A DNA stretch of 64,000 nucleotides from Takakia lepidozioides (lineage: Eukaryota; Plantae; Bryophyta). Each line of letters starts with the position of its first letter. The stretch's first letter is position 1. Location: NCBI GenBank assembly GCA_030704615.1, contig CM060731.1, positions 17,732,001-17,796,000 of the forward strand, read 5' to 3'. The translations under genes and the position numbers were made by a program. Shown here piece after piece: positions 15,688 through 55,680 of the stretch. The notes beneath the pieces were generated by a model. That model searched no databases and was not told where the DNA came from. It saw only the letters and a list, made by a program, of their open reading frames with translations.

Positions 15688-17304
15688 GAAAGAGAGAGCA
15701 GCAAGTGCACCCTAACTATGCAAAGGGTGTAATGGGCTAGGCCCCTTTAACAACCTACAGCAAGAAATATTCATATATGGGTAGCTACTAGATACTGGAG
15801 CCTGTATTTTTTTATTTTATTTTTTTTCTTTATGCAACAGGGGACAGAGGCCCTGGGAAAACTGTCTTAGAATTATATAAGGGAAAAAATTAAAACCGCC
15901 TGTATTTCTATTCATATATTTACAAAAAAACATAAGTATAGAAATTGTTTTAATATATTTAAAGTAAATAGAAAAACACGTCACACACGCATCTGGCCAA
16001 TCACGGAGGCGACAGTTGTGGGCAGAGAAGAGAGGCGACAGAGCGAGCAGCAACTGCAATAACGAAGGCGGCTTTGGACAACTGACTGACTGTTACTTAC
16101 TTGCCTCCAATTTCTCAATGCTCCCGCACTCACACTGCAATCCGGCTCCTCCAGCTCCCTCTTGCGGGCTATCCTCGGACGCAGAGGCTTGAATTCTTGA
16201 TGCTTTCATGTCGATTTGATGGATATGTGAATACATTGTATAGAATACCCGAATCCCGCTGAAATTCTACATTAGAACATCCATAAGCAAACAATTGAGT
16301 GTAGACAGTTTTCTTGAACAGCTCAAAGAGCCGAAAGTTGGAAGAAGGCATCGTCACATAAGGCTCAATCAGGTTGGTCGTGCAGTAACAATGGGAGTAC
16401 AACGTAGGTGAAGGCCATGACCAGATTCCCGAGATACTGTGGAGGATTAATAAGGTGATGAGGTTTGTGTGCTGTAATAATTTTGTGAGGCGGATTATGA
16501 TGATGGCGTGCACTGTACATTCAATGTCACATGGCCGTGACATAGACCTAACGTCCCACCGGTAGGTAGAGCAACCGACTCCCACTACATGGTGGGGATG
16601 TTTGTGATTTTGTAAGAAAGCTAGGCTGAAATGCTCAAGCTCTGGCGGTAGGGTGGTTCTGGCTGTGGTGCAAGAGATCTATTGGAATGAGTTATGGATG
16701 TCCAGGGCTGCTGCTGCATTTAGTGGCGGGGTGAGAGGGCAGGTGCGTGATTACGTACATTCCCAGATACATGCTTGTCTTGTGATCTGGTGCGGATAGA
16801 GAGCTGCTTGCGTCATTAATTTTGTTGGTTGCGTTAACAATGATGATGAGCATATGGGGGGTTTCAAATGCATGAGTCTTCTTGCGGATAGGCAGATCAA
16901 CGATTTTCTTGAATTGATTCTTCACATTGACCCTGCCAATTCCAGGTGCGGGACAAGAACATGTTGTGGAGTTGAATGAGCATGTCAAGTGCGGAGGCGC
17001 TTCCTACCTACCCCAAGATCCAAGCCACAGTAGCTCAACAACCATAATTGCGTCACTTACTCCCAAGGTCATTCTTCATCTACTTCAGGCATTCCGGTGA
17101 AGGACCCTCACCATGGAGGAATACATGCAGCAAACGTCCAGATTGCAGCTGTCCATGCAGAACAAGTTCAGCTCCTACTCTGATTTGATGCAGGGCAACG
17201 TGGTTAGCGAAGGAGCCAGCTGTCTGTAGAGATCTGCAACAAGCTCTTCACTTACGAGTCAGGAAATTCTCAATCAACCATAGGCTTCTCGAACCTTCGC
17301 ATAC

Positions 17305-20300
17305 ATGGAAGACGCCCCCCGGCTTCCAAAATGGGCCCAAAGGGCCCAGTGGAGGTCTGGCTCCTTTGGGGTATCGTCACCGAGTGTTTTTCGTAGGCTA
17401 GGCCCGGTACGTCCATATGTACGGGAGCCGGTTGCTGATCCACCTCTTGCAGGAATGATATTTGGGTGCACAACTAAAACTTATCATGAGTGCATGAGGC
17501 TGCAGCTGTTTGGATTGCCACTCAACAACAAGAGCCAGGTAAGACGAATCCAACAAAATGTCTTAAAGTTTGACGGAGAGGACAGGCCAGTGCAAAAAAC
17601 TCTCCTTCAGTTTTCATTCAGGAGAAGGAACCACTCTGCACTTGAGAGAACTTGCCATGGAACTTACACCTATTGATCCAGTTTTTTTGGAATGATGCAG
17701 GTGCTTCGGGTAGTCCCTGGTTCCAAGCTCTTCCTCTTCAATTTTCGAGTCAAGGAAATGTCAGGAATCTTTGAGGCAACCTCGTATGGAGGCTTGAGTA
17801 TTATGCCAGGTGCCTTTGCCAATTTTGGCTCATTTCCAGCACAGGTCACCCTCTTATCTTTACAGCTCCTGGTCTGGTGTTATAATTACAATCATCCCAC
17901 ACTCGGTAATTTCATAAGGCAAACACGGGCGCCTATTTTGTTAAGCATATATGCTGTCACTCTGCTAGCATGCTGTACAATGGGACTGGCAAAGGTCTTG
18001 CGGTGGGTGAATAACAGTAGAACTCCCATTTACTCAGTTGAGTATGATCGGCCACTGCTGCCTCACATTTCCTTACTGTTTGGAGCAGTTAAATTAAGAT
18101 AACACAGTTCCATACTACGATCTCAACGAATCAGAGAGGTTTTATGCTTTGAGGTCCAATCAAATTCTACTAAATGTGTGGGTAGATGTTGTGTTTGTTG
18201 CAGGTCAAAATCCGTTGCATTGATGAGTGCCCCAATTTGCCAGAAGATGTCTTTAAAGAAGCCATACGGGAAAACTACATCGATAGGCACAAGTTCACGT
18301 ATGAGCTGACCACAAGTCAAGTAAGTTCTATGAGTTCTAACTCTTGAATTGGAGTCTCCTCTGGTCTGAAATGCAAATATCGGATGCAAAGTCAGCCTAG
18401 CAAGCTTAGAAGTGATGCTTTGCACTTAGAAGGGGTTTCTCAGTGGCATTCTTTTGGGTCCCAGATTGACTAAAGGACCAATGTCATCCTGTCATCTCCT
18501 CCTTATCGGTTCTTCTCTTGAGGAAGGTGTCAGTTATAGTGGGTTACTTTGTGTCTCAGCGCAAAACATGTGGTGGGTTTCATGAACCTGGAGGTTTCTT
18601 GTCACTTGCTTCGTGAAAATGCCCTTAACTGCCGACGGAGGAGACGTGTCTTGTTGGTGGGTCAGACACCACAATAGCCTGATCATACCTCCACTGGCAA
18701 CTGATATTGTATTGAAAGGTTGCCTCTCTGGTATAGCAGACTAATGCATCCATTCTATCTCTGCACGGCTGCACCTCCTCAACATGATCATTTGCAGTAG
18801 GTCTTAGCAACTGACAGTCCAGAATACATTAAGTTTCAAGTAGACATCCCGAGTGAAAAATTACACAAAGTGCAATGCTAGGCTTTCATTGAAACGATGT
18901 TGCTCTGAAGTCCTTAGAGTAATGTCTCATATGTGATTTTGGTCCCATGTGTGTCTTTGGTTTTTGGTTTGCCGTCGCATGTGTCATGGGCATGTTGAGA
19001 ACCTATATGTGAGGATATTCTTTGAACAGGTCCAGAGACTCATGGATTTATTTAGGAGGGAGGCCCATTTGTGTGGATTACATTCCCAGACTGTGCAGAG
19101 TAATCAGATTTCAACTCAGCCTGATCTTCAAAGACCACAAAGAGAGACTAAACTGAAGAAAAAGCACAAAAAGCGTCAGAAGGTTCGTGCAACATATTAA
19201 GCCATGTCCAGCATATATTGTGAATGTCATGCATGTGCGTGTATGTCTAATTCATCAGAATTTTTAAGCAACATTTATTGTTTTGCATTGGAGTTAAAAG
19301 AGTTTATAAGACCGACAGATGAGATGCAGACCGACAGGGAATGATCAAGACTGAGAGAGATGGTGGAGAGTGTGGCTTTATGTATTCGTCTATTCATCAT
19401 CTGTGTCTGTGCATATGTGTGTGCAAAAGCAGGTCGGTGAAGGTGAGACCAGTGTTGGGATTGTGCAGTCATCTGCCGAAGGCGGGTTAGTGATGTCCAA
19501 AGCAAGTCCCTCTGCGCTACTTCCTCCTACTCCTGCAGTGACAGTTTCTCCTGGGGCTCCAAACTGCTTAGCTGAATCTTGTGTGCGGAAATCCATCAAT
19601 GACCAGTGCAATGATCCAAGTCACTCCACCGATTCATCTGGAATCAAGGAAGTAAAGCCTGAAACAAAGAACAGCTGCCAGCAGTCAGCAGTTCAAAGCC
19701 TGGAGAGGACAGCCGAGTCAACTGCCATTGCTTTCATGACAGACTGCTTGGCACCAACTGCCAAGACTATTGACACATCAGCTTCTTCTGCTCTTCAGAA
19801 AGTGCCTGAGGGCTTACCATGTGGATCCTGCAATGTAGTTATAGTGCAAGAGGCAGAAATGTCACCTGTCTGCACAGGAGTGGAGAGCACAGTGTCTGCA
19901 GTTGGGGGATTGTCAGATAAAAAGAAATTAAGTCTTGTAGAGAAAGCTGGTTTGGCACTGGAGATTGGGGGAACGTTGGGCATGGGGAAAGAGACTGCAG
20001 TCCTAGCTAGTGATGACAAAATGGTGACTGAGGTGGCTCTTTCATGGGCCACATCCCAGATTCTGGAGGGATTACGAGGTGAGCTTGGAAATGTAGGGGC
20101 AATAAAGAGTGAAGAAAAAAGATTTTTGTCACCGCAAGTTACTATTGACAGGCAACACAGTCTGGAGGATGATGAACAGGAGAAAGGAATGGAAAGGAAG
20201 TTACAACCCTCAGTTTCTGTCATGGTCCAAGGGCTTCCCAGTCCTAAGGCCAGTGCACCAGATACCACTTTGGAAGCTGATAAATTGCAACACAGGTCTA

Positions 20301-23300
20301 CTGAGAGCAAAAAGTTGCTGTCTTCTAAACTGGTTCTTGCAGCATCAGAGGTGCCAACCTTGCCAGCTGGAGAATGGTCGGCTAGGACAGTTGAGTCAAC
20401 TTCCAATGCTTTCACAGGAGACAGCTTGGCGCCAACTGCCAGAACCCATACATTAGCTTCTTCTGCTATTCTCGATGCGGCTGAGAACTTATTACTTGCA
20501 GTGTCAATGGAGAGTGAAGGGATTTCGTGGGGCCTTGAGGAAAGGAAAATAGCCGCTGGGCGTGGTGGTTCTGAGGAGTTCGAGGTTGCAGTTTCTGTTA
20601 GTGGTAGTGGATCTACGGTGATGAAGTCATCACTACCAGTTGCAATGGACAGACAATGTAGTTTGGAAGATATTGCTTTGAAGCAGGTTGAGCAACAGGA
20701 GAGGAGGCCTGAAATTGAAATAGAATCTTCAGGTTTTGTGATGCTCGAAGAGTCTCCCACAATTGGTGTCCCAGATCCCACTCTTGAAGTTGAGGAATTA
20801 CACCATAACCTTACAGAGAGCAAGGATATGACTTCTTCTGGACCAGTTCTGACCGCACTAGACGTAGGATCCCTTCCTGCAGTTGAATGCGTGGTGAGGC
20901 CAGTTGGGTCAACTTCCAAGGCATTCACTGGAGACAGCTTGGCATCAACTGTCACAACCCCTCGTAAATCAGCTTCTTCTTTTGTACAAAAAATGCCAGA
21001 GAACTTAGCACATGGCTTGCATAATGCAGATGTAGGGTTAGAAGCAGAGATGCCAATTGTCAGCATGGGAGTGGAGGCCAAAGGGTCTGCTGTCAGATTC
21101 ACAGACAAAGAGAACCTACGGCTTGTAGAGAAAGCTGGTTTGGCACTGGAGATGGGGGGAAGGTTGGGCTTGGAGAAAGATACTGCAGTCCTGGCTAGTA
21201 ATGACAAAATGGTGACTGAGGTGGCTTATTCATGGGCCACATCCCAGATTCTGGAGGGATTAGGAGGTCAGCTTGGCACCCTACATGCTCTGAAGATAGA
21301 AGTAGGATCGGTGGGCGTGGAGGGAAGGAATTTACAAGCTGGGCCCTGTTGTCAAGAGGAGTTGGAGCTTGAAGTTTATGCTGGTATTGGTGAATGTATG
21401 GCGACAAATCCATCACTGCAAGTTACTGTTGACAGGCAACATAGTCTGGAGGATGATGGTGCTGTGAAGCTGGTTAATCAAGAGGAGAAAGGAGATGAAA
21501 GAAAGGTACAACCCTCAGTTTCTGTCACAGTCCAAGGGCCTCCCATATCTAAGGCTGGGGCACCAGATACCACTTTGTTGGGCTTGGAGAAAGATACTGC
21601 AGTCCTGGTTAGTAATGACAAAATGGTGACTGAGGTGGCTTATTCATGGGCCACATCCCAGATTCTGGAGGGATTAGGAGGTGAGCTTGGCAACCTACAT
21701 GCTCTGAAGATAGAAGTAGGATCAGTGGGAATGGAGGGAAGGAATTTACAAGCTGGGCCTTGTTGTCAAGAGGAGTTGGAGCTTGAAGTTTATGCTGGTA
21801 TTGGTGAATGTATGGCGACAAATCCATCACTGCAAGTTACTGTTGACAGGCAACATAGTCTGGAGGATGATGGTGCTATGAAGCTGGTTAATCAAGAGGA
21901 GAAAGGAGATGAAAGAAAGGTACAACCCTCAGTTTCTGTCACAGTCCGGCCGCCCATATCTAAGGCTGGTGCACCAGATACCACTTTGGAAGCTGAGAAC
22001 AGGCCTACTGAGAGCTCGGGATTGGTTTCCTCTGAACTAATTCTTGCGGAATCAGACGCACTAACCCTCCCGGTAGTTGAATGCTTGGCGAGGACAGTTG
22101 AGTCCACTTCCAACGCTTTTACAGGAGACAGCTGGGCACTAACTGCCACAGATGTATCAGCTTCTTGTGCTACTCACAACGTGGCTGAGAACATTGGATT
22201 GTGCAGTGCAGCTGCGGGGTGTGAAGGGATACCGTTGGGCCTCCAGGAAGGGAAAGTACACGTTGGATGCTGTGTTACAGAGGAGCTGGAGGTTGCAGTT
22301 TCTCTTAGTGATGTCGTGCTGAAGCCATCAATACCAGTTGCAGTGGACAGGCAACATAGTTTGGAAGATGATATTGCTTCCAAGCTGGTCGAGCAACAGG
22401 AGAAGAGGAATGAAAGTGAGTTAGAATCTTCATGTTTTGTGATGGTCGAAGAGTCTCCCACAACCAAGGCTGGTGTCCCAGATTTCACTCTTGAAATTGA
22501 GGAATTACCTACTGACAGCAAGGCTGTGGCTTCCTCTGAACTAGTTCTTGCAGCATCAGATGTACCTACCCTCCCGGAAGTTGAATGCTCGGCGAGGACA
22601 CTTGAGTCACTAACTGCCACAAACGCCTGTAAATCATCTTCTTCCTTTCTACAGAAAATGCAAGAGAACCTAGCAGTTGGATTGCATAATGCAGCTACAG
22701 GTTTAGAAGCAGAGATGTCACTTCTCAGCAGAGGATTGGAGGCCAAGTGGGCTACTGTCAGATCCACAGACGATGAGAACGTGGGGCTTGTTGAGAAAGC
22801 TGAGACAGGGGAAAGGTTAGGGATGGCAATAGAGCCTACAGTCCTAGCTAGTAATGACAAAATGCTGACTGAGGTGGCTCTCTCATGGGCCACATCTCAG
22901 ATCCTGGAGGAAATAGGAGGTGAGCTTGGAAACCTGGGGGTTCTGAAGAGAGAAGAAAAAGGATTGTTGGGCTTGGAGAGAATGAATATAGAAGGGCAGC
23001 CTTGTGGTCAAGAGGAGTTGGAGCTTGATGTTTCTGCTGTTGTTGGTGAATCGGTGTTGTTGAACCCATTACTGCAAGCTACTGTTGACAACCAACATAG
23101 TCCGGAGGATGATGGTGCCGAGCAACTGGTTACAGAGGAGAAAGGAGAGGACAGGAAGTTACAATCCCCAACTACTTGCATGGTCCAAGGGCCACCCATT
23201 CCTAAGGCCAGTGCACCAGGTACCACTGTGGAAGATGAGCAACTGCATCATAGGTCTACTGAGACTTTACCGATTCATGCAGCATCAGTAGTACAGTCCT

Positions 23301-26300
23301 TACCAGCTGGAGGATGGCCAGTGAGGAATGCGGAGTCAACTTCCAGTGCTTTCACAGGAGTCAGCTTGGCACCAGCTGCCACAATCCATACATCAGCTTC
23401 TTGTGCTATTCAGAACATGGCTGAGAACTTGATAATTGGAGTGTGCATGGAGAGTGAAGAGGTATTGTTGAGCCTTGAGGACAGGAAAGTAGATGCAGGT
23501 GGATCTATGGTGATGAAGCCATCACCACCAGTTGCAGTGGGCAGGAAACATAGTTTGGAAGATTGTATTGCTTCCAAGCTGGTGGAGCACCAGGAGGCGA
23601 GGCTTGATAGTGAGGTAGAATCTTCCTGTTTTGTGATGTTGAAAGAATATCCGGCAACCAAGTCTGGTGTCCTATATCCCACTCTTGAAGTTGAGGAATC
23701 ACAACAGAACCCTACTGGGAGCAAGGATGTGGCCTCTAGACCAGAGTTTGCAGCATCAGACGTACAAACCATCACAACAGTTGAATGCTTGGCGAGGACA
23801 GTGGAGTCAATTTCCAATGCTTTCACAGGAGACAGCTTGGCACCAACTGCTACAACCCATACATCAGCTCCTTCTGCTATTCACGATGTGGCTGAGAACA
23901 TGATAGTTGGAGTGTGCATGGAGAGTGAAGAGGAATTGTTCAGCCTGGACGACAGGAAAGTAGACAACGGGTGTTGCGGTGGATACGAGTTGGAGGTTGC
24001 AGTTTCTGTAAGTGGTGGTGGATCTATATTGATGCAGCCATCACCACCCAATGCACTGGAAGATGACATTGATGTGAAGCTGGTGGAGCACCAGGAGAGG
24101 AGACATGAAAGTGAGTTAGAATCTTCTTGCTTTGTAGTGGTCAAAGAGTCTCCCACAACCAAGGCTGGTGTCCCAGATTGCACTCTTGATGTTGAGGAAC
24201 AACAACAGAACCCTACTGAGAACAAGGATGTGACTTCCTCTGGAGCAGTGCTTACTGTATCAGACGTGCCCACCCTCCCGGCAGTTGAATGCTCGGCGGG
24301 GACACTTGAGTCAGTAACTGCCACAACCGCTTGTAAATCAGCTTCTTCCTTTCTACAGAAAACGCCAGAGATCCTAGAAATTGGATTGCATAATGCGGCT
24401 ACAGATTTAGAAGCAGAGATGTCACTTGTCAGCACAGGATTGGAGACCGAATGGGCTGCTGTCAGATCCACAGACATAGAGAACCTGGGGCATGTTGAGA
24501 AAGCTGAGACGAGGGAAAGGTTGGGCATGGCAAAGGACACTACAGTCCTAGCTAGTACTGACAAAATGCTGACTGAGGTGGCTCTTTCATGGGCCACATC
24601 CCAGATTATGGAGGGATTAGAAGGCGAGCTGGGGAACCTTGGGGTTCTGAAGAGAGAAGAGAAAGGAGTGTTGGGCTTGCAGAGAAGGAATATAGAAGGT
24701 CAGCGTTGTGGTCAAGAGGCTGCTGGTGTTGGTGAATCGATGTTGTTGAACCCATTACTGCAAGCTACTGTTGACAGCCAACATAGTCTGGAGGATGATG
24801 GTGCTATGCAACTGGTTCATCTAGAGGATAAAGGAGAGGACAGGCAGTTACAATCCCCAACTACTTGCATGGTCCAAGGGCCACCCATTCCTAAGGCCAG
24901 TGTACCAGGTACCACTGTGGAAGATGAGCAACTGCATCATAGGTCTACTGAGACTTTACCGATTCATGCAGCATCAGCAGTACAGTCCTTGCCAGCTGGA
25001 GGGTGGCCGGTGAGGACAGCGGAGTCAACTTCCAATGCTTCCACAGGAGTCAGCTTGGCACCAGCTGCCACAATCCATACATCAGCTTCTTGTGCTATTC
25101 AGAACATGGCTGAAAACTTAATATTTGGAGTGTGCATGGAGAGTGAAGAGGAATTGTTGAGCCTAGAGGATAGGAAAGAAGACGCAGGGTGTCTTGGTGC
25201 AGAGGAGTTTAAGGTTGCAGTTTCTGTTAGTGGTGGTGGATCTATAGTGACTATAGATCCACCACTACCAGTTGCAGTGGGCAGGAAACATAGTTTGGAA
25301 GATCGTATTGTTTCCAAGCTGGTGGAGCACCAGGAGACGAGGCTTGATAGTGAGGTAGAATCTTCCTGTTTTGTGACATTGAAAGAATCTCCGGCAACCA
25401 AGTCTGATGTCCTATATCCCACTCTTGAAGTTAAGGAATCACAACAGAGCCCTACTGAGAGCAAGGATGTGGCCTCCTCTGGACCAGAGTTTGCAGCATC
25501 AGACGTACAAACCATCACAACAGTTGAATGCTTGGCGAGAACAGTGGAGTCAACTTCCAATGCTTTCACGGCACCAACTGCCACAACCCATACATCAGCT
25601 TCTTCTGCTAATCACAATGTGGCTGAGAACATGAGAGTTGGAGTGTGCATGGAAAGTGAAGAGGTATCGTTGGGCCTCGAGGATAGGAAAGTAGAGGTCG
25701 CGTGTCTTGGTGCAGAGGAGTTTGAGGTTGCAGTTTCTGTTAGTGGTGGGGGATCTATGGTGATGAAGCCATCACCACTCGTTGCAGTGGACAGGAACCA
25801 TAGTTTGGAAGATGACAGTGCTTCCAGGCTGGTGGAGCACCAGGAGAGGAGGCATGAAACTGAGGTAGAATCGTCCTGTTTTGTGATGTTGGAAGAATCT
25901 CCGACAACCAAGTCTGGTGTCCTATATCCCACTCTTGAAGTTGAGGAATCACAACAGAACCCTACTGGGAGCAAGGATGTGGCCTCCTCTAGACCAGAGT
26001 TTTCAGCATCAGACGTACAAACCATCACAACAGTTGAATGCTTGGCGAGGACAGTGGAGTCAACTTCCAATGCTTTCACAGGAGAGAGCTTGGCACCAAC
26101 TGCCACAACCCATACATCAGCTTCTTCTGCTAATCACAATGTGGCTGAGAACATGATAGTTGGAGTGTGCATGGAGAGTGAAGAGGTATCGTTGAGCGTG
26201 GAGGACAGAAAAGTAGACAGCGGGTGTTGTGGTGGACATGAGTCGGAGGTTGCAGTTTCTGTAAGTGGTGGTGAATCTATAGTGATGCAGCCATCACCTC

Positions 26301-29300
26301 CCAATGCACTGGACAGGCAACATAATTTGGAAGATGACATTGATTTGAAGCTGGTTGAGCACCAGGAAAGGAGGCATGAAAGTGAGTTAGAATCTTCTTG
26401 TTTTGTGGTAGTCAAAGAGTCTCCCACAACCAAGGCTGGTGTCCCAGATTGCACTCTTGATGTTGAGGAACAACAACAGAACCCTACTCAGAGCAAGGAT
26501 GTGGCTTCCTCTGGAGCAGTGCTTATGGTGTCAGACGTACCTACCCTCCCGGCAGTTGAAGGCTGGGCGGGGACACTTGAGTCAGCAACTGCCACAGCCG
26601 CTTGTAAATCAGCTTCTTCGTTTTTAAAGAAAATGCCAGAGATCCTAGAAATTGGATTAATTAATGTGGCTACAGGTTTAGAAGCAGAGATGTCAATTGT
26701 CAGCACAGGATCGGAGGCCAAATGGGCTCCTGTCAGATCCACAGACAAAGAGAACCTGGGGCATGTTGAGACAGCTGAGACAAGAGAAAGTTTGTTCATG
26801 GCAAAAGAGACTACAATCGTAGCTAGTACTGACAAAATGCTGACTGAGGTAGCTCTTTCATGGGCCGCATCTCAGATTCTGGAGGGATTAGAAGGCGAGC
26901 TGGGGAACCTTGGGGTTCTGAAGAGAGAAGAGAAAGGAGTGTTGGGCTTGCAGAGAAGGAATATAGAAGGTCAGCGTTGTGGTCAAGAGGCTGCTGGTGT
27001 TGGTGAATCGATGTTGTTGAACGCATTACTGCAAGCTACTGTTGACAGCCAACATAGTCTGGCGGATGATGGTGCCATGCAACTGGTTCATCAAGAGGAT
27101 AAAGGAGAGGACAGGAAGTTACAATCCCCAACTACTTGCATGGTCCAAGGGCCACCCATTCCTACGGCCAGTGCACCAGGTACCACTGTGGAAGATGAGA
27201 GACTGCAACACAGGCATACTAGAACCAAGGATTTGTTGTCTTCTTTGCCGATTCTTGCAGCATCCAGAGTACAGTCCTTACCAGCTGGAGGATGGCCGTT
27301 GAGGACAGCAGAGTCAACTTCCAGTGCTTTCACAGGAGCCAGCTTGGCACCAGTTGCCACAATCCATACATCAGCTTCTTGTGCTATTCCGAACATGGCT
27401 GAGAACTTAATAATTGAAGTGTGCATGGAGAGTGAAGAGGTATTGTTGAGCCTTGAGGACAGGAAAGTAGATGCAGGGTGTCTTGGTGCAGAGGAGTTTG
27501 AGGATGGAGTTTCTGTTAGTGGTGGTGGATCTATGGTGATGAAGCCATCATCGCCAGTTGCAGTGGACAGGAAGCATAGTTTGGAAGATCATATTGATTC
27601 CAAGCTGGTGGAGCACCAGGAGAGGAGGCATGATAGTGAGCGAGAATCTTCCTGTTGTGTAATGTTGAAAGAATCTCCAACAGCCAAGTCTGGTGTCCCA
27701 TATCCCACTCTTGAAGTAGAGGAATCACAACAGAACCCTACTGAGAGCAAGAGTGTGGCTTCCCCTGGACCAGTGTTTGCGGCATCAGACATACTAACCC
27801 TCACAACAGTTGAATGCTTGGCGAGGACAGTGGAGTCAACTGCCAATGCTTTCACAGGAGACGGCTTGGCACCAACTGCCACAACCCACACATCAACTTC
27901 TTTGGCTATTCACATTGTGGCCGAGAACATGATGGTTGGAGTGTGCATGGAGAGTGAAGAGGTATCGTTGGGCCTCGAGGACAGGAAAGTAGACGTCGGG
28001 TGTCTTGGTGCAGAGGAGTTTGAGGTTGCAGTTTCTGTAATTGGTGGTCAATCTATGGTGATGAAGCCATCATCACCAGGTCCAGTGGACAGGAAACAAT
28101 ATAGTTTGGATGATGATATTGCTTCCAAGCTAGTGGAGCACCAGGAGAGGAGGCATGAAAGTGAGTTAGAATCTTCTTGTTTTGTGGTGGTCAAAGAGTC
28201 TCCCACAACCAAGGCTGGTGTCCCAGATTTCACTCCTGATGTTGAGGAAGAACAACAGAACCCTACTGAGAGCAAGGGTGTGGCTTCCTTTGGAGCAGTG
28301 CTTACGGTGTCAGACGTAGCTACCCTCCCGGCAGTTGAATGCTCGGTGGGGACACTTGAGTCACCAACTGCCACAATGGATTGTAAATCAGCTTCTCCCT
28401 TTCTACAGAAAATGCCAGAGAACCTAGCAATTGGATTGCATAATGCAACTACAGGTTTAGGATCAGAGATGTCATTTGTCAGCACAGGATTGGAGGCCAA
28501 ATGGACTGCTGTCAGATCCACAGACAAAGAGAATCTGGGGCAACTTGAGAAGGCTGAGATGGGGGAGAGGATGGGGATGGCAAAAGAGACTACAGTCATA
28601 GTTAGTCATGACAAGATGTTGACCGAGGCGGCTCTTTCATGGGCCACATCCCAAATTCTGGATGGACTAGAAGGTGAGCTTGGAAATCCAGGGATGCTGA
28701 AGAGAGAAGAAAATGGATTGTTGAGCTTGGAGAGAAGGAAAATAGAAGGTCAGCCTTGTGGTCACGAGGATTTGGAGCTTGAAGTTTCTGCTGGTGTTGG
28801 TGAATTGGTGTTGTTGAACCCATTACTGCAAGCTACTGTTGACAGCCAACATAGTCTGGAGGATGATGATGCCATGCAACTGGTTTATAATCAAGAGGAG
28901 AAAGGAGAGGACAGGAAGTTACAATCTTCAATTACTTGCATGGTCCAAGGGCCACCCATTCATAAGGCCAGTGGTACCACTTTGGAAGCTGAGAATTTTC
29001 ATAGGCCTATGGAGAGCGAGGATTTGTTGTCTAATTCTTTACTGGCTCTCGCACCATCGGTAGTACCGACCCTACCAGCTGGAGGATGGCCGGTGAGGAC
29101 AGTGGAGTCAACTTCCGGTGTTTTCACAGGAATCAGGTTGGCACCAACTGCCACAACCCATACATCAGCTTCTTCTGCTATTCACATTGTGGCTGAGAAC
29201 TTAATACCTGGAGTGTGCATGGAGAGTGAAGAGGTATTGCTGGGCCTGGAGGACAGGAAAGTAGGGGCAGGGTGTCTTGGTCCAGAGGAGTTTGAGATTG

Positions 29301-32300
29301 GAGTTTCTATTAGTGGTGGTGGATCTATGGTGATGAAGCCATCACCACCAGTTGCAGTGGACAGGAAGCATAGTTTGGAAGATCTTATTGCTTCCAAGCT
29401 GGTGGAGCACCAGGACAAGAGGCAGGAAACTGAGCTAGAATCTTCCTGTTCTGTGATGTTGAAAGAATCTCAGACAACCAAGTCTGGTGTCCCTGCATGT
29501 TCCACTCTTGAAGTTGAGGAATCACAACAGAGCCCTACTGAGAGCAAGAATGTGGCTTCCCCTGTACCAGTGTTTGCGGCATCAGACGTACTAACCCTCA
29601 CATGCTTGGCGAGGACAGTGGAGTCAACTTCCAATGCTTTCACAGGAGACAGCATGGCACCAACTGCCACAACCCATACCTCAGCTTCTTCTGCTTCTCA
29701 CAATGTGGTTGAGAACATGATAGTTGCAGTGTGCATGGAGAGTGAAGAGGTATCATTGGGCATGGAGGACAGCAAAGTAGAGGCAGGGTGTCGTGGTGGA
29801 GACGAGTTGGAGGTTGCAAGTTCTGGTAGTGGTGGTGGATCTATAGTGATGCAGCCCTCACCACCCGATGCAGTGGACAGGCAACATAATTTGGAAGATG
29901 ACATCGATGTCAAGCTGATCGAGCACCAGGAGAGGCGGCACGAAAGTGAGTTAGAATCTTCATTTTTTGTGATGTTCAAAGAGTCTCCCGCAACCAAGGC
30001 TGGTGTCCCAGATTTCTGTCTTGATGTTGAGGAACTACAACAGAACCCTACTGATAAAGAGACTACATTCCTAGCTACTAATGACAAGATGTTGACTGAG
30101 CTCGAATCTTCCTGTTCTGTGAGGTTGAAAGAATCTCCGGCAACCAAGTCTGGTGTCCTATATCCCACTCTTGAAGCTGAGGAATCACAACAGAGCCCTA
30201 CTGAGAGCAAGGATGTGGTTTCCTTTGGACCAGAGTGTGCGGCATCAGACGGACTAACCATCACAACAATTGAATGCTTGGCGAGACCAATAAAGTCAAC
30301 TGCCAATGCTTTCACAGGAGACGGCTTGGCACCAACTGCCACAACCCACACATCAACTTCTTTGGCTATTCACAATGTGGCTGAGAACATGATGGTTGGA
30401 GTGTGCATGGAGAGTGAAGAGGTATCGTTGGGCCTCGAGGACAGGAAAGTAGATGTCGGGTGTCTTGGTGCAGAGGAGTTTGAGGTTGCAGTTTCTGTAA
30501 TTGGTGGTCAATCCATGGTGATGAAGCCATCATCACCAGGCCCAGTGGACAGGAAACAATATAGTTTGGATGATGATATTGCTTCCAAGCTAGTGGAGCA
30601 CCAGGAGAGGAGGCATGAAAGTGAGTTAGAATCTTCTTGTTTTGTGGTGGTCGAAGAGTCTCCCCCAACCAAGGCTGGTGTCCCAGATTTCACTCCTGAT
30701 GTTGAGGAAGAACAACAGACCTCTACTGAGAGCAAGGGCGTGGCTTCCTCTGTAGCAGTGCTTGCAGTGTCAGACGTACCTAGGACCCTCCCGGCAGTTG
30801 AATGCTCGGTGGGGACACTTGAGTCACCAACTGCCACAGCGGCTTGTAAACCAGCTACAGGTTTAGAAGCAGAGATGTCACTTGTCAGCACAGGATCGGA
30901 GGCCAAATTGGTTGCCGTCAGATCCACAGACAACGAGAACCCGGGGCACGTTGAGAAGGCTGAGACGGGGGAAAGGCTGGGCATGGCCAAAGAGACTACA
31001 GTCGTAGCTAGTAATGACACGATGCTGACTGAGGTAGCTCTTTCATGGGCCACATCCCAATTTCTGGAGGGATTAGAAGGCGAGCTTGGAAACCTACAGG
31101 TTCTGAAGAGAGAAGAAAGAGAAGTGTTGGGCTTGGAGAGGAGTATAGAAGGTCAGCCTTGTGGTCAAGAGAAGTTGGAGCTTGAAGTTTGTGCTGGTGT
31201 TGGAGAATCTATGGTGATGAATCCATCACTACAAGCTACTGTTGATAGCCACCGTAGGCTGGAGGATGATGGTGTCAAGCAATTGGTTAATCAAGAGGAG
31301 AAAGGAGAGGACAGGAAGTTACAATCCTCAATTACTTTCTTGCAGGTCCAAGGGCCTCCCATTCATAATGCCAGTGCACCAGGTACCACTTTGGAAGCTG
31401 AGAAATTGCACAGTAGCAAAGAGTTGTTGTGTTCATTACCAGTTTTTGCACCATCAGTAATAGCGACCCTACCAGCTGGATTATGTCTGGTAAGGACAGT
31501 GGAGTCAACTTCCAGTGCTTTCACAGGAGTTAGCTTGCCACCAACTGCCACAATTCATACATTAGCTTCTTCTGCTATTCACAATGTGGCTGAGAACTTA
31601 ATAACTGGAGTGTGCATGGAGAGTGAAGAGGTATTGGTGGACCTGGAGGACAGGAAAGTAGAGGTAGGGTGTCTTGGTGCAGAAGAGTTTGAGGTTGCAG
31701 TTTCTGTTACTGGTGGTAGATCTATATTGATCAAGCCATCACCACCACTTGCAGGTGACAGGCAACAGGGTTTGGAAGATGAGATTGGATTGAAGCAGGT
31801 TGAGCACCAGAAGAGGAGGCTTGAAAGTGAGTTAGAATCTTCATGTTTTGTGGTGGTCAACGAGTCTCCCACAACCAAGGCTGGTGTCCCAGATTTCACT
31901 CCTGAAGTCAAGGAATTACAACACAACTCTCCTGATAGCAAGGAGGTTGCTTCTTTTGGACTCAATGTTCTTGCGGTAGCAGACATAGCAACCCTCCCGG
32001 CAGTTGAATCCTCGGTAAGGACAGTTGAGTCAACTTCTTATCAATTCACAGGAGACAGATTGGCACAACCAGCCACAACAGCTCTTAAATCAGCTTCTTC
32101 GTTTGTACAGAAAATGCCAGAGAACCTAGCACTTGGATTGCATGATGCAGCTGTAGTGTTAGAAACAGCAATGTCACTTGTCAGCACAGGATTGGAGGAC
32201 AAAGGGGCTGCTGTCAAAGTCGCAGATAAACTGCTTGCTGACTTGGCACGGGAGGTAGGGGATAACTCGGGCTTGAAGACAGAGCCTACAGTCCCAGCTA

Positions 32301-35300
32301 GTAATGGGACACGGCCAGTGACTCATGCCACTGAAATGCTTCCCTCAGACACCTCTCAGATTGGACAGGAAGTTGTTGGTAGTGAAATGACGGCAATGAA
32401 GAGAGAGAAGGAAGCAGCCTTGGTGTTGGAAGAGAGCAAAGTAGCAGATGGGCCTTGTGGTCACAGGGAGGTTGGTGGTGGTGGTGAATCTGTGGTGATG
32501 AGGGTATCTTTGGCAGTTGGAGTGGAGAGGCAACAGAGTGTGAAGGATGATGGTGTTATAAGTCTGGTTGACCAACAGGATAGGACAAAGAGAAGGGAAC
32601 TAGAATCTTCACTTTGTATCGTGGTCCAAGAGTCTCCCACATCCAAGGCCAGTGCACCAGCAGACATGGCTCAGTTTGCGGATAATGTTGTGAGTTGTAA
32701 GGTTGGCAAGAGGCAGAGAGAGGCACTGGAGATAGGGGGTAACTTGGGGTTGGAAGTAGAGCCTACAGTCCTAGCTAGTAATGAGACGCTAGTGACACAT
32801 GTCAGTGAGATACTTCCCTCAGACACCTCTGAGATTGGACATGAAGTTATTTGTGAAGTAAAGGCTGAAACTGTGGTGATGAAGAGATATCTGCCAGTTG
32901 GAGTATGCAGGCAACATAGTATGGAGGATGAGGGCGTCATGAATGTGGTCCACCAACAGGATAGGAGAGAGGCAAGGGAATTAGAATCGTCAGTTTGTAT
33001 CGAGGTCCAACAGTCTCCAACATCCAAAGCCAGTGCCCCAGCAGACATGGTTCAGTTTGTGGATAATGTTGTGAAGTGCAGGCCTAGCACAAGGCAAAGA
33101 GAGGCACTGGAGACAGAGTCAAACTTGGGATTGGAAGCAGAGCCTGCAGTCCCATCTAGTGATGAGAAACTGGTGAGTCATACAGCTCAAATACTTCCCT
33201 TGGACACCTCTCAGATTGGACAGGAAGTTATTAGTAGTGAAGTGACAGCAATAAAGAAGGGTCTTGAAGGGAGCAAAGTAGCAGATGAGCTTTGTTGTCA
33301 CGGGATGGTTGGCGATGGTGGTGAATCCGTGGTGATGAAGATTTCTCTGCCAGTTGGAGAGAGTCAACATAGTCTGGAGGATGAGGGGGTCATGAATTCC
33401 GTCAACCAGCAGGAGAAGAGAGAGTCAATGGAATTAGAATCTTCACTATCTATCAAGGTCCAACAGTCTCCCACATCCGAGGTCAGTGCACCAGCAGACA
33501 TGGCGGATAATGTTGTGAGTTGTAGGCCTGGCAAGAGGCATAGAGAGGCTCTGGAAACAGGGGAAAACCTGGGCTTGGAGGCAACGCCTGCAGTCCCAGC
33601 TAGTGACGACAAACTAGTGAATTGTGGCACTGAAATACTTCCTCTCGACACCTGTCAGATTGGACAGGAAGTTATTTGTAGTGAAGTGACGGTAATGAAG
33701 AGAGAGAAGGAAGCAGCCTTGGGTCTGGAAGAAAACAAAGTAGAAGATGGGCCTTGTGTTCGTGGGGGGGTTGGTGATGGTGGTGAATCTGTGGTGATGA
33801 AGATATCTCTGCCAGCTGGAGTGGAGAGGCAACATAGTCTGGAGGATGAGGGGGTTATGTGTCAGGTCGACCAACAGGAGATGAGAGGGACAAGGGAATC
33901 TGAATCTTCACTTTGTATTAGAGTCCAAGAGTCTCCCACATCCAAGGCCAGTGCACCAGCAGTCATGGCTCTTTTTGCCGATAACGTTGCTAGTTGCAGG
34001 CTTGGCAAGAGGCAGAGAGAAGGACTGGAGATACGGGAAAACTTGGGCTTGGTGGCAGAGCCTGCAGTCCCAGCTAGTGACGAGAAACTAGTGACTCATG
34101 CCATACCTCCCTTGGATACCTCTCATATTGGACAGGAAGTTATGAGTAGTCAAGTGACGGCAATGAAGAGAGAGAAGGAACTAGCCTTGGGTCTGGAAGA
34201 GATCAGCAAAGTAGAAGATGGGCCTTGTTGTCTTGGTGGGGTTGGTGATGTTGGTGGATCTGTGTTGGTGCTATCTGTGCAGGTGGGAGTGGAGAGGCAA
34301 TCTAGTCTGGAGGATGATGGCATTATGAGTCTTGTGGTCGACCAACATGAGAGGAGAGAGTCAAGAGAATTAGAATCCTCACTCTCTATCATGGTCCAAG
34401 AGTCTCCCACATCCAAGGCCAGTGCAACAGCAGACATGGGTCAGTTTGCGGATGGTGTTGTGAGTTGCAGGCTTGCCAAGAGACTTAGAGAGGCCCTGGA
34501 GATAGGGACAAACTTGGGCTTGGAGGTGGAGCCTGCAGTCCAAGCTAGTGATGACAAACTAGTGACTAATGCCGCTGAAATACTTCCCCTGGAAACCTGT
34601 CAGATTGGACAAGAAGTTATTTGTAGTGAAGTGACTCCAATGAAAACAGACAAGAAAGCATCCTTGGGTCTGGAAGAGAGCCAAGTAGAAGATGGGCCTT
34701 ATGGTGGCGGGGAGGTTGGTGATGGCGGCGAATCTGTGGTGATGCAGCTGTCTCTGCCAGTTGGAGTGGAGAATCAACATAGTGTGCAAGATAAGGGGGT
34801 CACAAATCTGGTGGACCAACAGGAGAGGACAGAGACACGGGAATTAGAGTCCTCATGTTCTAACATGGTCCAACAGTCTCCCACATCCAAGGCCAGTGCA
34901 CCTGTAGACATGGCTCAGCTTGCGGATAATGTAGTGAGTTGCAGGTCTGGGAAGAGGCAGAGAGAGGCACTGGAGATAGGGGGTACCTTGGAAGCAGAGC
35001 CTACAGTCCGAACTAGTAATGGGAAAATAGTGACTCATGCCACTGAAATACTTCCCTTGGACAACTCTGAGATTGGACAGGAAATGATTTGTAGTGGAGT
35101 GATGGCAATGAAGAGAGAGAAGGAAGCATCATTGGGTCTGCAAGAGATCAAAGTACAAGATGGGCCTTGTAGTGGCGGGGAGGTTGGTGATGGTGGTGTC
35201 TCTCAGATTGGACAGGAAGTGATTTGTAGTGAAGTGACGGCAGTGAAGAGAGACATGGAAGCATCATTGGGTGTGGAAGAGAGCAAAGTAGAAGATGCGC

Positions 35301-38300
35301 CTTGTGGTCTTATGGAGGTTGATGACAGTGGTGAATCTGTGGTGATGAATATATCTCTGCTAGTTGGAGTGGAGAGGCATCATAGTCTGGAGGATGAGGG
35401 GGTCATGAATCTGGTCGACCAGCAGGAGAAGAGAGAGAGGAGGGAATTAGGCTTTTCACTTTCTAGCATGATCCAACAGTCTCCCACGTCCAAGGCCAGT
35501 GCACCAGCAGACATGGCTCAGTTTGCTGATAATCATGTGGTGAGTTGGAAACCTGGAAAGAGACAGAGAGAGGCAGTGGAGATAGTGGCAAACTTCGGCT
35601 TGGAGGCAAAGCATGCAGTCCCAGCTAGTAATACAGGGACACTAGTGACTCATGCCAATGAAATACCTCCCTCCGGCAACTGTCAGATTGGACAGGAATC
35701 GATTTGTAGTGAAGAGACGGCAATGAAGATAGAGATGAAAGCATCCTTGGTTGTGGAAGAGAGCAAAGTACAAGATGGGCTTGGTGGTCTCGGGAAGGTA
35801 CATGATGGTGGTGAAGCTGTGGTGATGAAGACTCTGCCAGTCGGAATGGACAGGCCACAAAGTCTAGAGGATGAGAGGGCCATGAATTTGGTCCACCAAC
35901 AGGATAGGAGAGAGATACCGGAATTAGAATCTGTACTTTGTATCAAGGTCCAAGAGTCTCCAACATCCAAGGCCAGCGCCCCAGCAGACACGGTTCAGTT
36001 TGTTGATAATGTGGTGAGTTGCAGGCCTGACAAGAGGCAGAGAGAGGCACTGGAGATAGGGGCAAACTTGGGCTTGGAGGCAGAGCCTACAGTCCCAGCT
36101 AGTAATCATGCCAGTGAAATATGTCATCCCTCGGACACCTCTCAGATTGGACAGGAAGTGATTTGTTGCGAAGTGACGCCAATGAAGAGAGAGAAGGAAG
36201 TATCCTTGGGTGTGGAAGAGAGCAAAGTACTAGATGGGCATTGTGGTGGCAGGGAGGTTGGTGGTGGTGGTGAATCTATGGTGATGAAGATATCTCTGCC
36301 AATTGGAGTGGAGAGGCATCATAGTCTGGAGGATGAGGGGGTCATGAATCCGGTCCACCAACAGGAGAGGATACAGGCATGGGAATTAGATTCTTCAATT
36401 TCTAACATTGTCCAACAGTCTCCCACATCCAAGGCCTGTGCACTAGGAGACATGGCTCAATATAATGTGGTGAGTTTGAGGCCTGGCAAGAGGCCGAGAG
36501 AGGCAGTGGAGATAGGGGCAAACTTGGGCTTGGAGGCAGAGCCTGCAGTCCTAGCTAGTTCTCAGAAGCTAGTCACTCATGCCACTGAAATACTTCCCTC
36601 GGACACCTGTCAGATTGGACAAGAAGTTTTCTGTGGTGAAGTGATGAAGAGAGAGGAGGAAGCAGCCTTGGGTCTGGAAGAGAGGAACGTAGAAGATGGG
36701 CCTTGTAATGGCAGGGAGGTTGGTGATGTTGGTGAATCTGTGGTGATGAACATATCAATTGCAGTTGAAGTGGAGAGGCATCATAGTCTGGTGAATGAGG
36801 GGGTCATAAATCTGGTCAACCAGGAGGAGAGAGGAGAGAGAAGGGAATTGCAATCATCACTTTCTGACTTGGTCCAACAGTCTACCACATCCAAGGACAG
36901 TGCACCAGCAGACTTGGCTGATGATGTGGTGAGTGGCAGGCCAGGCAAGAGGCAAAGAGAGGCACAGGAGATAGGGTTAAACTTGGGCTTGGAGGAAGAG
37001 TCTGCAGTCTCAGCTAGTAATGGGAAACTAGTGACTCATGCCACTGAAGCATTCCCCTTGGACACCTGTCAAATTGGACAGGAAGTAATTTGTAGTGAAG
37101 TCACGACAGTGAAGAGAGAGATGGAAGCATCCTTGTCATGTGTGGAACAGAGCAAAGTAGAAGATGGGCCTATTAGGGGCGGGGTGGTTGGTGATGGTGG
37201 TGAATCTGTGGTGATGAAGTTATCTGTGCCAGTTAGAATGGAGAGGCATCATAGTCTGGAGGTTGAGGGGTTCATGAATCTGGTCCACCAACAAGAGAGG
37301 AGAGAGACAAGGGAATTAGAAGCCTTAGAATCCTCACTTTCTAACGTAGTCCAACAGTCTCCCACACCCAAGGTCAATGCACCCGCAGGCCTGGCTCATT
37401 TAGCAGATAATGTTTCGAGTTGTAGGCCTTGCAAGAGGCAGAGAGAGGCTCTGGAGATTGGGGCAAACTTGGGCTTGGAAGTATCCCCAGCTAGTAATGG
37501 CACTTACGCCACTGAAATACTTCCCTTGGACACCTCTCAGATTAGACAGGAAGTTTGTAGTAGTGAAGTGACGGAGATGAAGAGAGAGAAGAAATCATCC
37601 TTGGGTGTGGAAGAGAGCAAAGTAGAAGATGGGCCTTGTGGTCGCAAGGAGGTTAGTGATGGTGGTGGACCTGTGGTGATGAAGCTATGTCTGCCAGTTG
37701 GAGTGGAGATGCAACAGGATGAGGGGGTCCTGAATCTGGTCAACAAGCAGGAGAGAAGGGAGTCAAGGGAGTTAGAATCTTCACTTTGTAACATGGTGCA
37801 ACAGTCTCCCATATCCAAGGCCAGTGTACCAGCAGACATGGCTCATTCTGCAGATAATGTTGTGAGTTGGAGGCCTGGCAAGAGGCAGAGAGAGGCAGTG
37901 GAGACAGGGGCAGATTGGGGCTTGGAGGCAGAACCTGTAGTCCAAGCTAGTGACGAGAAACTGGTGACTTATGCCGCGGAAATACTGCCCTTGGACATGT
38001 CTCTTGTGAGTTGTAGTAAAGTGACGGCAATGAAGAGAGAGAAGGAGACAGCCTTGGTTCTAGAAGAGAGCAAAGTAGACGATGGGCCCTGTGGTCACGG
38101 AGAGGTTGGTGATGCCAGTGATGCTGTGGTAACAAAGATATCTCTGCCACTTGGAGTGGAGTGGCAACATAGTGTGGAGCATGTGGGGGTCATGAATCTG
38201 GTCCACCAACAGGATAGAGAGACAATGGAATTAGAATCTTCACTTTCTACCATGGTCCAACAGTCTCCCACATCCAAGGCCAGTGCACCAGCAGCGGATA

Positions 38301-38985
38301 ATGTTGTGAGTTGCAGGCTTGGCAAGAGGGAGAGAGATAACGTGCCTACAAGTCCAAAAAAAAGAAACAATGGTCTAGCCTTCAGACCTGGATCGAATGT
38401 ATTTGTTACAAGGTTTCCTGATGACGGTGGGAGCTGCCTAGCATCCACAGTCACCGAAGGTAGGTCATTACAGGCCTTATATGAGTTTAAGTTTCAGTGT
38501 GCACATGTAAAATTTATTTAGAGGCTTTTGTGTATGCTACTCTGCATGTCTTGGCCACACTTTTGACCAAGATGCAGTGAGCACTTCCTCATCATTCCTA
38601 ATTCGATGATGCCTGATATGCTATAGATTTTCTTGTTGCTTGTTTTCTACCTAAGAGGTGAGCACTAATATGCAGGGCTTGTTACTCAAAGCCAAGTGAT
38701 TGACTTGTATTCACTGTGTTGAATGTGTCTTCTTTTAATTTTGAGTCAGCCATGGCGTATCATGTGGCTATGCTTGTCCCAGGTTCTGATACAGGTCCTG
38801 CAGACCGTGCCGAGGACTACATGGAAATCAGCTTGACAAATGTGGAAGAGGAGGGGAAGAGAAAGCCAGAGTCTCTTGTTGTGGATAAAACAAGCCAAGA
38901 ACAGCAGAACCTTTTGCAGCCCCCGGTTGATGGTGGCTCCAAGAGGGACATTACTCCCTGGAAGCTACTCGACAAGCATTACTAG
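17305..38985 (+). CDS. Giant DCD (development and cell death) domain protein with a ~6,300-aa acidic repetitive tail, predicted 6,625 aa
   Basis: Exons 17305-17538, 17701-17844, 18204-18320, 19030-19182, 19433-38459, 38783-38985. All introns are GT-AG with matching phases (0,0,0,0,1); total 19,878 nt. Exons 1-4 spell a DCD domain: AGMIFGCTTKTYHECMRLQLFGLP..Q|VLRVVPGSKLFLFNF..EMSGIFEATSYGGLSIMPGAF..FPAQ|VKIRCIDECPNLPEDVFKEAIRENY..HKFTYELTTSQ|VQRLMDLF. The start could extend to ATG 17113. Confidence 0.8.
19690..32250 (+). repeat. Coding repeat zone A of the giant exon (~21 units, higher-order organisation)
   Basis: 8 units carry A/VSxDKMxTEVAxSWATSQILEGLxGELGNL. They are interleaved with GVCMESEE..LEDRKV..EEFEVAVSV..DRKHSLED..KLVEHQERR..ELESSCF..ESPTTK units. 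Confidence 0.85.
32260..38340 (+). repeat. Coding repeat zone B of the giant exon (13 units of ~150-160 aa)
   Basis: Unit consensus ADNVVSCRPGKRQREALEIGANLGLEAEPAVPAS..KLVTHATEILPLDTSQIGQEVICSEVTAMKREKEA.LGLEESKVEDGPC..GGESVVMKISLPVGVERQHSLEDEGVMNLV.QQE.RE.RELESS....VQQSPTSKASAP. Period mostly 450-480 nt. Confidence 0.9.
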
Positions 38986-39998
38986 CCAATACTCGTCCAA
39001 CTCCACCAAAGGACATGTGTCCCACAGTTTTGTTGTTCAGACGGTTGTGCATGTGGATCGTAGTCTAATTACATGCAGATTCTAGAGATTGCTGATTATG
39101 CAAAAAAAAATTGAACCTGTCTTACTCTCCCCCTCCCCTTTTGTTGATTGGGTGGGGAAAGCAAGCAAAAACAATGGAACAATAGTAATGTGCTGAGATT
39201 TTATCTTTTGTTTTGTTCTTTGTCTGGCCCTTTGGGCATACCATGATTCAGCAAGTTTTTTTTTGTCTGTCTGGTTCAGGCCTACCGCGGTTGTAATAAA
39301 TACCTTTCTTTCGATTCTTCTTCTGACAGTTTGACGAAGGGCAAGGCTGCCTCCATACGCCTTCACGCTATCTGCAAACAAATACACCTGCGCCATCCCC
39401 TCCCACCAAGAAGTGGCTCTTCGACTCGGCCGTCGCCCCTGCCACTTGTGGCGGTGAGTTTTGGACCCCGGTCCCTGTTTGTTGGTGGGAGAAAATCTAC
39501 AACCCCTGCAATCGTCTTTCCTCCAGGGGACGCTTGGGGTTCGAGATACAACACCATCACAGATTTCATCTGCGGAATCTGCGTGTGTACCGCTTCAAAC
39601 TGAGCCCATTTTCTGGCTTAAAATCTTCGTAACAAGGTTGCAAGGCATGCTGGAGTCTCCAACCTCTTTGTACGCCACGGACTGTCCGTTGTTACACATT
39701 CTTCATCGCCGCCCAATACATGTCTGCAACTCTATCTCCCTCTCTTCTAAGGGCATCGGGGAGTTTTAGGGTGGGAAATTGAAGCGAAGAATTCACTGTC
39801 CTTTCTACCTACGAGATCCGTGGAGATACTAGAGTTCACACCACGACAATTGCTTGAGCAATACTTGTTTTGGGGCTGCTTGTGGCTATGTACCCCAACT
39901 CATTTGCCCAGTTTGGGAAGGTCAGGCAACCCGACAGTGTGGGGAAAAGCCACCGCAGGAGGCACAGGCGTAGAAGTAGGAGGGGGCGATGGGAGGTA

Positions 39999-50300: not shown

Positions 50301-51005
50301 CTTGTGATGTCACATCTGCCTGGACTGCAGCAACAGACTCTCCAGTTACCCGCAGGACCAGCTTAACATCCTGCAGAAACTCACGTCCCAGCTCAGATAG
50401 CCCTTTATAGACAACCTCATACCTTGGATTGATGGATCTAGATTCCACCCATCCAACAACCCCCCTGTTTCCTATGCCACTCTTGGCATAATTTGAGTGG
50501 AATTGCTTAGATCTGAGATTCCTCAAAAGAGTATTTGGAAACCCGACTAACGTGCCACTGTCTTTGAATTGGCTGCCAATGTACTGACGGAACACCCCTG
50601 TTCCCAAGTTGTGGAACGGTTGCACTTGGGATGCATTTGTGTGATGCCTGGTCCAAATTCCCAACAACCAAAATCCTCATTATTCCAGCAAGAGTACAAC
50701 TTCTACTTATAAGAGAAGGGGTGGGATTGAAGGTTGTATCTGGACTCAGTGTGGAAAGACATAGTAACTGATCTTACACACTAATCATTACTCAATCAGT
50801 GCACAATTGTATGTGAAGAATTAGTTATCAAAAGTTTTAAGACACATGAATTGGCATGGAACAAACAGTGGTTAAAAGTTCCTCTACTTCTCTAGAATAA
50901 ACTCCTGATCAGATTTCCCTCTCATTTTTCACATTGGTCTCGCCTAATTACTTCTCATAAGATTAAACGTCAGACATTACCTGCGGAAAAGGTGCTGGAC
51001 GTCAT
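47358..51005 (-). CDS. ABC1/UbiB atypical kinase, ABC1K10 / ADCK2 (yeast Cqd1)-like, ~671 aa
   Basis: Exons 51005-50981, 50675-49462, 49261-49031, 48789-48517, 47912-47760, 47477-47358, with consistent phases. Motifs FIKWGQWAATRPD (KxGQ), VASGSIAQVH, VAVKVRHP, HADLHPGN, LLDVGM, C-terminal TIDGLMAP. The exon 1/2 junction is least certain (GAG acceptor). Confidence 0.93.

Positions 51006-52566: not shown

Positions 52567-55680
<3,114 letters not shown>

Follow-up and report, generated by a model that had tools for sequence, protein, structure and literature searches.

How does a gene for a small plant domain come to carry a coding exon of 19 kb, and what does selection preserve in it? The question is raised by a 64,000-nucleotide (nt) stretch of the genome of the moss Takakia lepidozioides (GenBank assembly GCA_030704615.1, contig CM060731.1, positions 17,732,001 to 17,796,000 of the forward strand; hereafter the window, from whose first letter positions are counted), in which a gene encodes a DCD domain followed by a giant tail. 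Here we report that this is a six-exon gene with one open frame running through a giant fifth exon, and that selection keeps the reading frame of this exon while the residues drift almost freely. We lean towards the explanation that the tail grew by in-frame duplication behind a DCD head that is likely nuclear, and that its frame is under selection, with length and composition mattering over sequence.

One open frame through a giant exon

In a six-frame scan of the window, one forward frame is open for 6,388 codons (19355-38518); the next longest frame overlapping this interval has 476 codons, and frames elsewhere in the window reach at most 664. The original prediction had proposed four small exons, a giant stop-free exon and a short terminal exon, and its coordinates and phases were confirmed to the base. 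All six exons lie on the forward strand and have GT-AG ends, with intron phases 0, 0, 0, 0 and 1, and the spliced product has 6,625 codons with a single stop at the end (706 kDa, pI 4.6). Exon 1 (17305-17538) holds the start codon, an SVFRRLG motif and the first part of the DCD domain; exon 2 (17701-17844, 144 nt) holds the DCD core with LFL and PAQ; exon 3 (18204-18320, 117 nt) continues the domain; and exon 4 (19030-19182, 153 nt) carries its last helix and closes with the predicted Lys-rich segment KLKKKHKKRQK, which resembles a nuclear localization signal (NLS). Exon 5 (19433-38459) is free of stops over 19,027 nt, and the terminal coding exon 6 (38783-38985) ends in ITPWKLLDKHY. An AATAAA lying 310 nt past the stop (39295-39300, forward strand) is, from its sequence, a possible polyadenylation signal. 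Upstream, an ATG-started frame of 38 codons (about 17114-17230) is in frame with the main start and ends about 75 nt before it; it may be an upstream open reading frame if it lies within the 5' untranslated region.

The DCD domain had been described as complete, and the Pfam scan agrees: exons 1, 2 and 3 match Dev_Cell_Death (PF10539) in order, at model positions 1-28, 33-79 and 80-118 of 126 (E-values 2e-5, 8e-12 and 2e-7), and alignment to orthologues places the final helix at the start of exon 4. Against the cut-off of 27.8 bits, exons 2 and 3 pass (45.4 and 31.2) and exon 1 falls below (24.6). The FGLP, LFL and PAQV motifs of the family (PMC1182354) are all present in the spliced translation; the PLxE site near the DCD C-terminus reads PNLPED here, and PNLPA in the Sphagnum orthologues, which deviate too. 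Outside the domain, a (S/P)V(F/L/H)xRL(G/A) motif (17383-17403) recurs in the DCD proteins P0030, P0032, P0033, P0040 and P0067, from Chara to an angiosperm, and may be a docking motif.

Additional sequence from a second data set falls on exon 5. Five distinct contigs of run X1, which is RNA by guess, match it at at least 99% identity (167-327 nt, depth about 4), and a sixth is a chance piece of 18-19 nt from another contig; these contigs confirm the sequence, not transcription. Another run, X2, matched nothing here, an absence that carries no information. One X1 contig links 28322-28447 to 30744-30784, a distance of 2,463 nt (821 codons), by way of an identical stretch of 54 nt, and could be an assembly chimera or a real variant in unit number.

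Repeat arrays of the tail

Exon 5 consists of 34 diverged units of 130-260 amino acids (aa) in two arrays, with a core of about 55 aa that an iterated profile finds 34 times in full and once in part. Array A (about 19652-32245) comprises 21 units arranged in a higher-order pattern, one unit of about 245 aa followed by one to three of about 170 aa, with a predicted helix around LSWATSQIL in the longer unit. Array B (32246-38344) comprises 13 units, each of about 155 aa, and a DNVVSCRxGKRQRE-type motif occurs in 13 of 13 (copies spanning 32681-38297), with KRxR in 12. Twelve of these 13 motifs fit the looser NLS pattern K(K/R)x(K/R). The nearest partners of the units are 75-97.5% identical in DNA, mostly 80-90%, and the longest exact repeat is 143 nt, which together argue against an inflated assembly.

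The tail is composed of E 11.5, S 10.6, V 10.1, L 8.9, A 8.2 and G 7.5%, with W at 0.41 and Y at 0.34%. The predicted richness in Glu, Ser, Val, Ala and Gly and the near absence of Tyr and Trp were thus borne out, with Leu missing from the predicted list. Exon 5 has a CpG observed/expected ratio (o/e) of 0.22-0.25 without CHG depletion, and Sphagnum exon 5 has a CpG ratio of 0.16, a pattern that resembles long-term gene-body CG methylation.

The protein had been called possibly undescribed, and no orthologue of similar size was found. Among 4,948 candidates of 3,488-11,099 aa there was no tail homologue; residues 3,900-5,099 had no match at E<=0.001 among 1.84 billion representatives; two B units gave no usable match in an Atlas search; and in metagenome contigs, 285 matches to a pattern included no tail homologue. 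A profile search for DCD relatives, limited to proteins of 262-2,000 aa, returned 52, the longest of 1,340 aa, far below the size of the window protein. Pfam matches on the tail (ZP1_ZP4_Ig-like, DUF3223, Antimicrobial17, Tc-R-P) were rejected, as they are sums over repeats in which no single stretch passes. An origin from a transposon or silenced satellite was likewise set aside, as the tail has no such Pfam domain and CHG is not depleted (o/e 1.2-1.3).

Selection on the frame and on the residues

Selection was tested on 28 of the 34 units (6 A1, 12 A2 and 10 B), u01, u04, u19, u22, u23 and u28 being omitted as partial or internally duplicated. In frame-blind DNA alignments, 48 of 50 internal gap runs are multiples of three (binomial against 1/3, p=7e-21), and the remaining two, of 5 and 10 nt, lie 25 columns apart in one unit and compensate each other; the indels between units do preserve the frame, as had been claimed. 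Neutral simulation on the unit trees leads one to expect stops in 13.2 (A1), 14.8 (A2) and 14.2 (B) codon columns, about 42 in total, against none observed, and none of the 300 neutral runs in each class was free of them. On terminal branches alone, 20.6 nonsense changes are expected and none is observed (P ~1e-9). Zero stops and in-frame indels together indicate that translation of exon 5 has continued over its history and into recent branches, with little regard for the residues encoded.

Divergence among units is equal at the three codon positions (0.15-0.21); the DCD exons compared with Sphagnum show the normal pattern (0.13/0.20/0.44). The ratio of nonsynonymous to synonymous rates (dN/dS, omega) obtained by counting is 0.89-0.99 with fitted kappa, 0.78-0.85 at kappa 1 and 1.09-1.17 at kappa 4, and two codon models give 0.89-0.98. 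Weak signals hint at some constraint on residues: invariant columns exceed the neutral number in B (28 against 16+-4) and A2 (31 against 21+-4), and aromatic content is lower than in 197-199 of 200 neutral runs.

The tail is likely disordered. AlphaFold2 predicts no fold from unit alignments (B, pLDDT 52.7 and pTM 0.10; A1 and A2 together, pLDDT 33.0 and pTM 0.14), the latter model containing a single low-confidence helix at LSWATSQIL, and near-neutral drift with free in-frame indels would be hard to reconcile with a folded domain.

Moss orthologues and the origin of the units

Sequence comparison places the window gene as a member of a moss DCD orthogroup, orthologous to much shorter genes. 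A search with exon 2 returned only Sphagnum-type proteins (7 of 9 candidates). Sphagnum orthologues have 287-295 aa in named species (CY35_04G095100-type), and that of Ceratodon purpureus (M758_1G093100 / KC19_1G097600) has 1,162 / 1,166 aa; both are annotated only as hypothetical or DCD domain-containing. In a DCD tree of 33 rows (one or two per cluster, fragments left out), the window protein joins Sphagnum and Ceratodon P0030 (1,162 aa) at 95/93. The liverwort, lycophyte and Kelch-type DCDs fall outside this group. At 6,625 aa the predicted protein would be about six times as long as its longest known moss counterpart (1,162 aa).

A metagenome scan for relatives gave 18 loci. One of them, the transcript-like L001, whose protein matches an S. 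magellanicum entry, aligns to the genomic L006 in six exons; the introns have GT-AG ends and measure 162, 312, 143, 406 and 242 nt, and the first four are in phase 0. Exon 1 of the window gene pairs with the first coding exon of this Sphagnum orthologue, intron 1 is 162 nt in both, and exons 2-4 measure 138, 117 and 150 nt in Sphagnum versus 144, 117 and 153 nt here. Sphagnum exon 5 is 1,448 nt long and decayed, with a stop at codon 292 that yields a 291-aa protein; the last intron is in phase 2 counted from the start codon, which is uninformative because that exon is frame-shifted. Exon 6, untranslated in Sphagnum, keeps ITPWKLLD 168 nt from its start, versus 167 nt in the window (an 8-residue match; 0/2000 shuffles). 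This agreement independently backs the remote terminal exon and, with it, the reading of exon 5 as a single unit. At the DNA level, neither exon 6 nor the ends of exon 5 aligned to Sphagnum better than the best shuffle, the peptide match alone being significant.

Synteny agrees with this assignment. A single-exon EMP70/TM9 gene lies upstream of the window gene (11712-13694, forward strand), in the same order and strand as beside a decayed Sphagnum duplicate (L012-L017, e.g. L017:5455-9605) in which a broken EMP70 is followed by remnants of DCD exons 3-6; this block is likely a copy that arose by genome duplication and was then lost. The moss orthologues thus have in common the DCD clade, the (S)VFxRLG / PYV-EPV segment before DCD, and the VVSCxxGKRxR and C-terminal motifs, with the six-exon layout shared with Sphagnum and EMP70 synteny with a Sphagnum duplicate. 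They differ in the tail, which has about 6,400 aa with 34 repeats in the window gene and about 970 aa without an array in Ceratodon, and is decayed in Sphagnum.

The Sphagnum orthologue itself (L001:550-4613; L006:10001-15328) stops at 291 aa and has a 3.2-kb 3' region with decayed coding remnants and an intron 1.2 kb past the stop; its early-stop message is a predicted target of decay, yet was assembled as a transcript three times (L001-L003). A transcript for a 627-aa DCD protein (L010:258-2141) groups with Ceratodon P0023 (350 aa) in a second moss DCD clade. The liverwort protein P0026 (Calypogeia, 1,340 aa) has, by eye, its own unrelated short repeats rich in Glu, Val and Ala at about 880-1200, and DCD tails may expand repeatedly.

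The orthologues also inform the source of the repeats. Ceratodon P0030 carries VVSCxxGKRxR once, in both strains (by profile, the best among the proteins compared; 0/1000 shuffles), and a B-unit DNA profile matches Sphagnum exon 5 once, at the basic motif (E 2.6e-4, 0/500 shuffles). The single copy in Ceratodon and the match in Sphagnum imply that the repeats go back to a native piece present once in the ancestral exon. Two A-unit DNA profiles had no match in Sphagnum exon 5.

Explanations for the giant tail

Based on these observations, we propose that an ancestral, fast-evolving tail exon of 1.4-3 kb was amplified by repeated in-frame tandem duplication, likely through unequal crossing-over, with single units multiplying first and higher-order blocks later. 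The protein would likely enter the nucleus by means of its Lys-rich segment and 12 KRxR motifs, and for its DCD head the predicted ligand is modified RNA or DNA, or else a partner protein. The tail may be viewed as a long flexible acidic polymer, displaying 13 copies of the ancestral basic motif and ending in the conserved C-terminal motif, in which length, charge and a few short motifs would matter rather than sequence, like AHNAK-type tails. The original prediction of a scaffold, in the sense of residues read by partners, finds no support: dN/dS is near 1, and orthologues manage with 291 or 1,162 aa.

Several results weigh against our proposal. On terminal branches the pooled omega is 0.92, not different from 1 (p=0.40). 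Class A1 has no surplus of invariant columns (87 against 83+-7), and the neutral simulation included neither the CpG context of exon 5 nor site-rate variation, so that small excesses could arise from these. The tail is dispensable in Sphagnum, which manages with its 291-aa protein. Ceratodon matches exon 6 only weakly (20/1000 shuffles on the last 80 aa, 132/1000 on the whole tail), and a protein B profile had no match in Sphagnum exon 5, the DNA-level match not being recovered. The B units, mostly xGKRQRE, miss the class V NLS consensus LGKR(K/R)(W/F/Y) as given in PMC9699179. The AlphaFold2 alignments were shallow, with 12 closely related rows, and charge-hydropathy places the tail just on the folded side (FoldIndex +0.05 to +0.09) because Val and Leu are abundant; the predicted disorder thus agrees with the structure models and not with FoldIndex. 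Finally, no X1 read or contig crosses any splice junction, and X1 may hold DNA.

The most serious rival, to which we give substantial but minority weight, is a passenger expansion, in which a real and translated gene carries a tail without a function. The tail would have grown by drift in a weakly expressed gene, the frame being kept to save the C-terminal motif or to avoid nonsense-mediated decay. An omega indistinguishable from 1 and orthologues of 291 and 1,162 aa are what this explanation would lead one to expect, the GC content at third codon positions (GC3; 0.44 in exon 5 versus 0.58-0.61 in two neighbour genes) fits weak codon selection, and liverwort and Chara DCD relatives also have long unrelated acidic tails. 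However, decay is no absolute barrier in this DCD gene, since three assembled Sphagnum transcripts carry a stop lying 1.2 kb before the last intron. The basic motif, kept in every B unit and once in Ceratodon, and the surplus of invariant columns in B and A2 also weigh against this rival.

A usual product that is much shorter seems improbable. Exon 5 might be skipped, split by in-frame introns, or confined to a rare isoform or to one cell type. The small and giant forms of AHNAK are a parallel: PMC10682155 describes a 17-kDa form besides the 700-kDa one. Skipping would give a 233-aa DCD protein ending in exon 6, near the 291 aa of Sphagnum, and X1 contigs lie on exon 5 at a depth of only about 4. 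Skipping would, however, put exon 6 out of frame with its conserved motif, and the Sphagnum transcripts contain exon 5 whole; moreover, selection against stops in all three unit classes and on terminal branches implies that every part of exon 5 is translated at times.

We consider it very unlikely that a once-functional giant gene was recently silenced or freed of constraint. X1 has no junction-spanning RNA and the Sphagnum tail did decay, but the window gene has 19.9 kb of coding sequence without stop or frameshift, its DCD motifs and splice sites are intact, and the undepleted CHG gives no mark of transposon-like silencing. Least probable of all is an array inflated by mis-assembly, for which a single X1 contig, running from 30784 back into 28322, can be cited. 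Its joint, however, is an identical stretch typical of graph chimeras, the exact repeats are short, even the most similar long pairs share only 93-97% identity, divergence between most units is 10-20%, and X1 contigs match five distinct places at 99% or more; collapse, with a true array even longer, is possible.

Returning to a selected frame in a tail grown by duplication, a bolder version can be put forward only tentatively. A moss lineage, independently of animals, may have built an AHNAK/Ki-67-like, 700-kDa putative nuclear polymer from a 19-kb exon, with a modified-base-reading DCD head and a tail in which selection favours length, acidity and an ancestral moss docking motif in 13 copies over sequence. 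Such a protein and exon would be among the largest plant proteins and coding exons. The longest Arabidopsis proteins have about 5,400 aa, and the window protein, if translated, would exceed them. We found no description of this gene or of a plant exon of such size in the main texts of the literature searched.

Whatever its function, the locus offers a natural experiment, with the orthologous exon decayed in Sphagnum, about 1,000 aa long in Ceratodon and 6,300 aa here, and with the frame selected and the residues hardly so. This contrast makes it possible to ask directly if length is selected in a giant unstructured tail or merely tolerated. The basic and C-terminal motifs provide handles on an uncharacterised moss DCD subfamily.

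Neighbouring genes

Like EMP70/TM9, the other neighbours are ordinary. A triose-phosphate-transporter family gene (42507-43652) lies on the forward strand, and an ABC1 kinase (48472-50676) and a UbiE/COQ5 methyltransferase exon (52810-53130) on the reverse strand. A remnant of a PPR E+ motif (734-1024, forward strand) scores under the cut-off.

Comparison with known systems

Within the plant DCD family, the window gene is nearest by description to subgroup III, which has an N-terminal DCD and a variable remainder (Tenhaken et al. 2005, PMC1182354). It has FGLP, LFL, PAQV, the N-terminal position and a conserved Cys in common with the family, and differs from other plant DCD proteins in lacking a Kelch, ParB or Asn-rich part and in reading NLPE for PLxE. 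Together with its short orthologues it forms a moss orthogroup of DCD proteins without described function, of which it is the repeat-amplified member.

The kinship of DCD to EVE/PUA-like domains, part of the original prediction, is supported by a profile of the window exons and two relatives, which matches the EVE protein PH1033 (PDB 1wmm) with an E-value of 1.7e-4 over 91 positions, the sole match among 177,635 sequences. This agrees with Bell et al. 2020 (PMC7641849), who call the ligand of plant DCD unclear. The likeness to EVE/PUA-like modified-base readers consists in this profile match, and base binding by the window DCD is a prediction.

AHNAK and AHNAK2 encode a small N-terminal domain in small exons and 128- or 165-aa repeats in one exon of about 17 kb, for proteins of about 600-700 kDa (PMC10682155). 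If spliced and translated, the 20-kb message described here would exceed the AHNAK2 giant exon (17.6 kb, same source) and thus would test how plants define and export very long exons. The window gene differs in having no PDZ in the Pfam scan and no homologous repeat, and its units are far more diverged, acidic and near-neutral. The likeness is one of architecture, a small-exon N-terminal domain followed by one giant repeat exon, and may at best be viewed as convergent.

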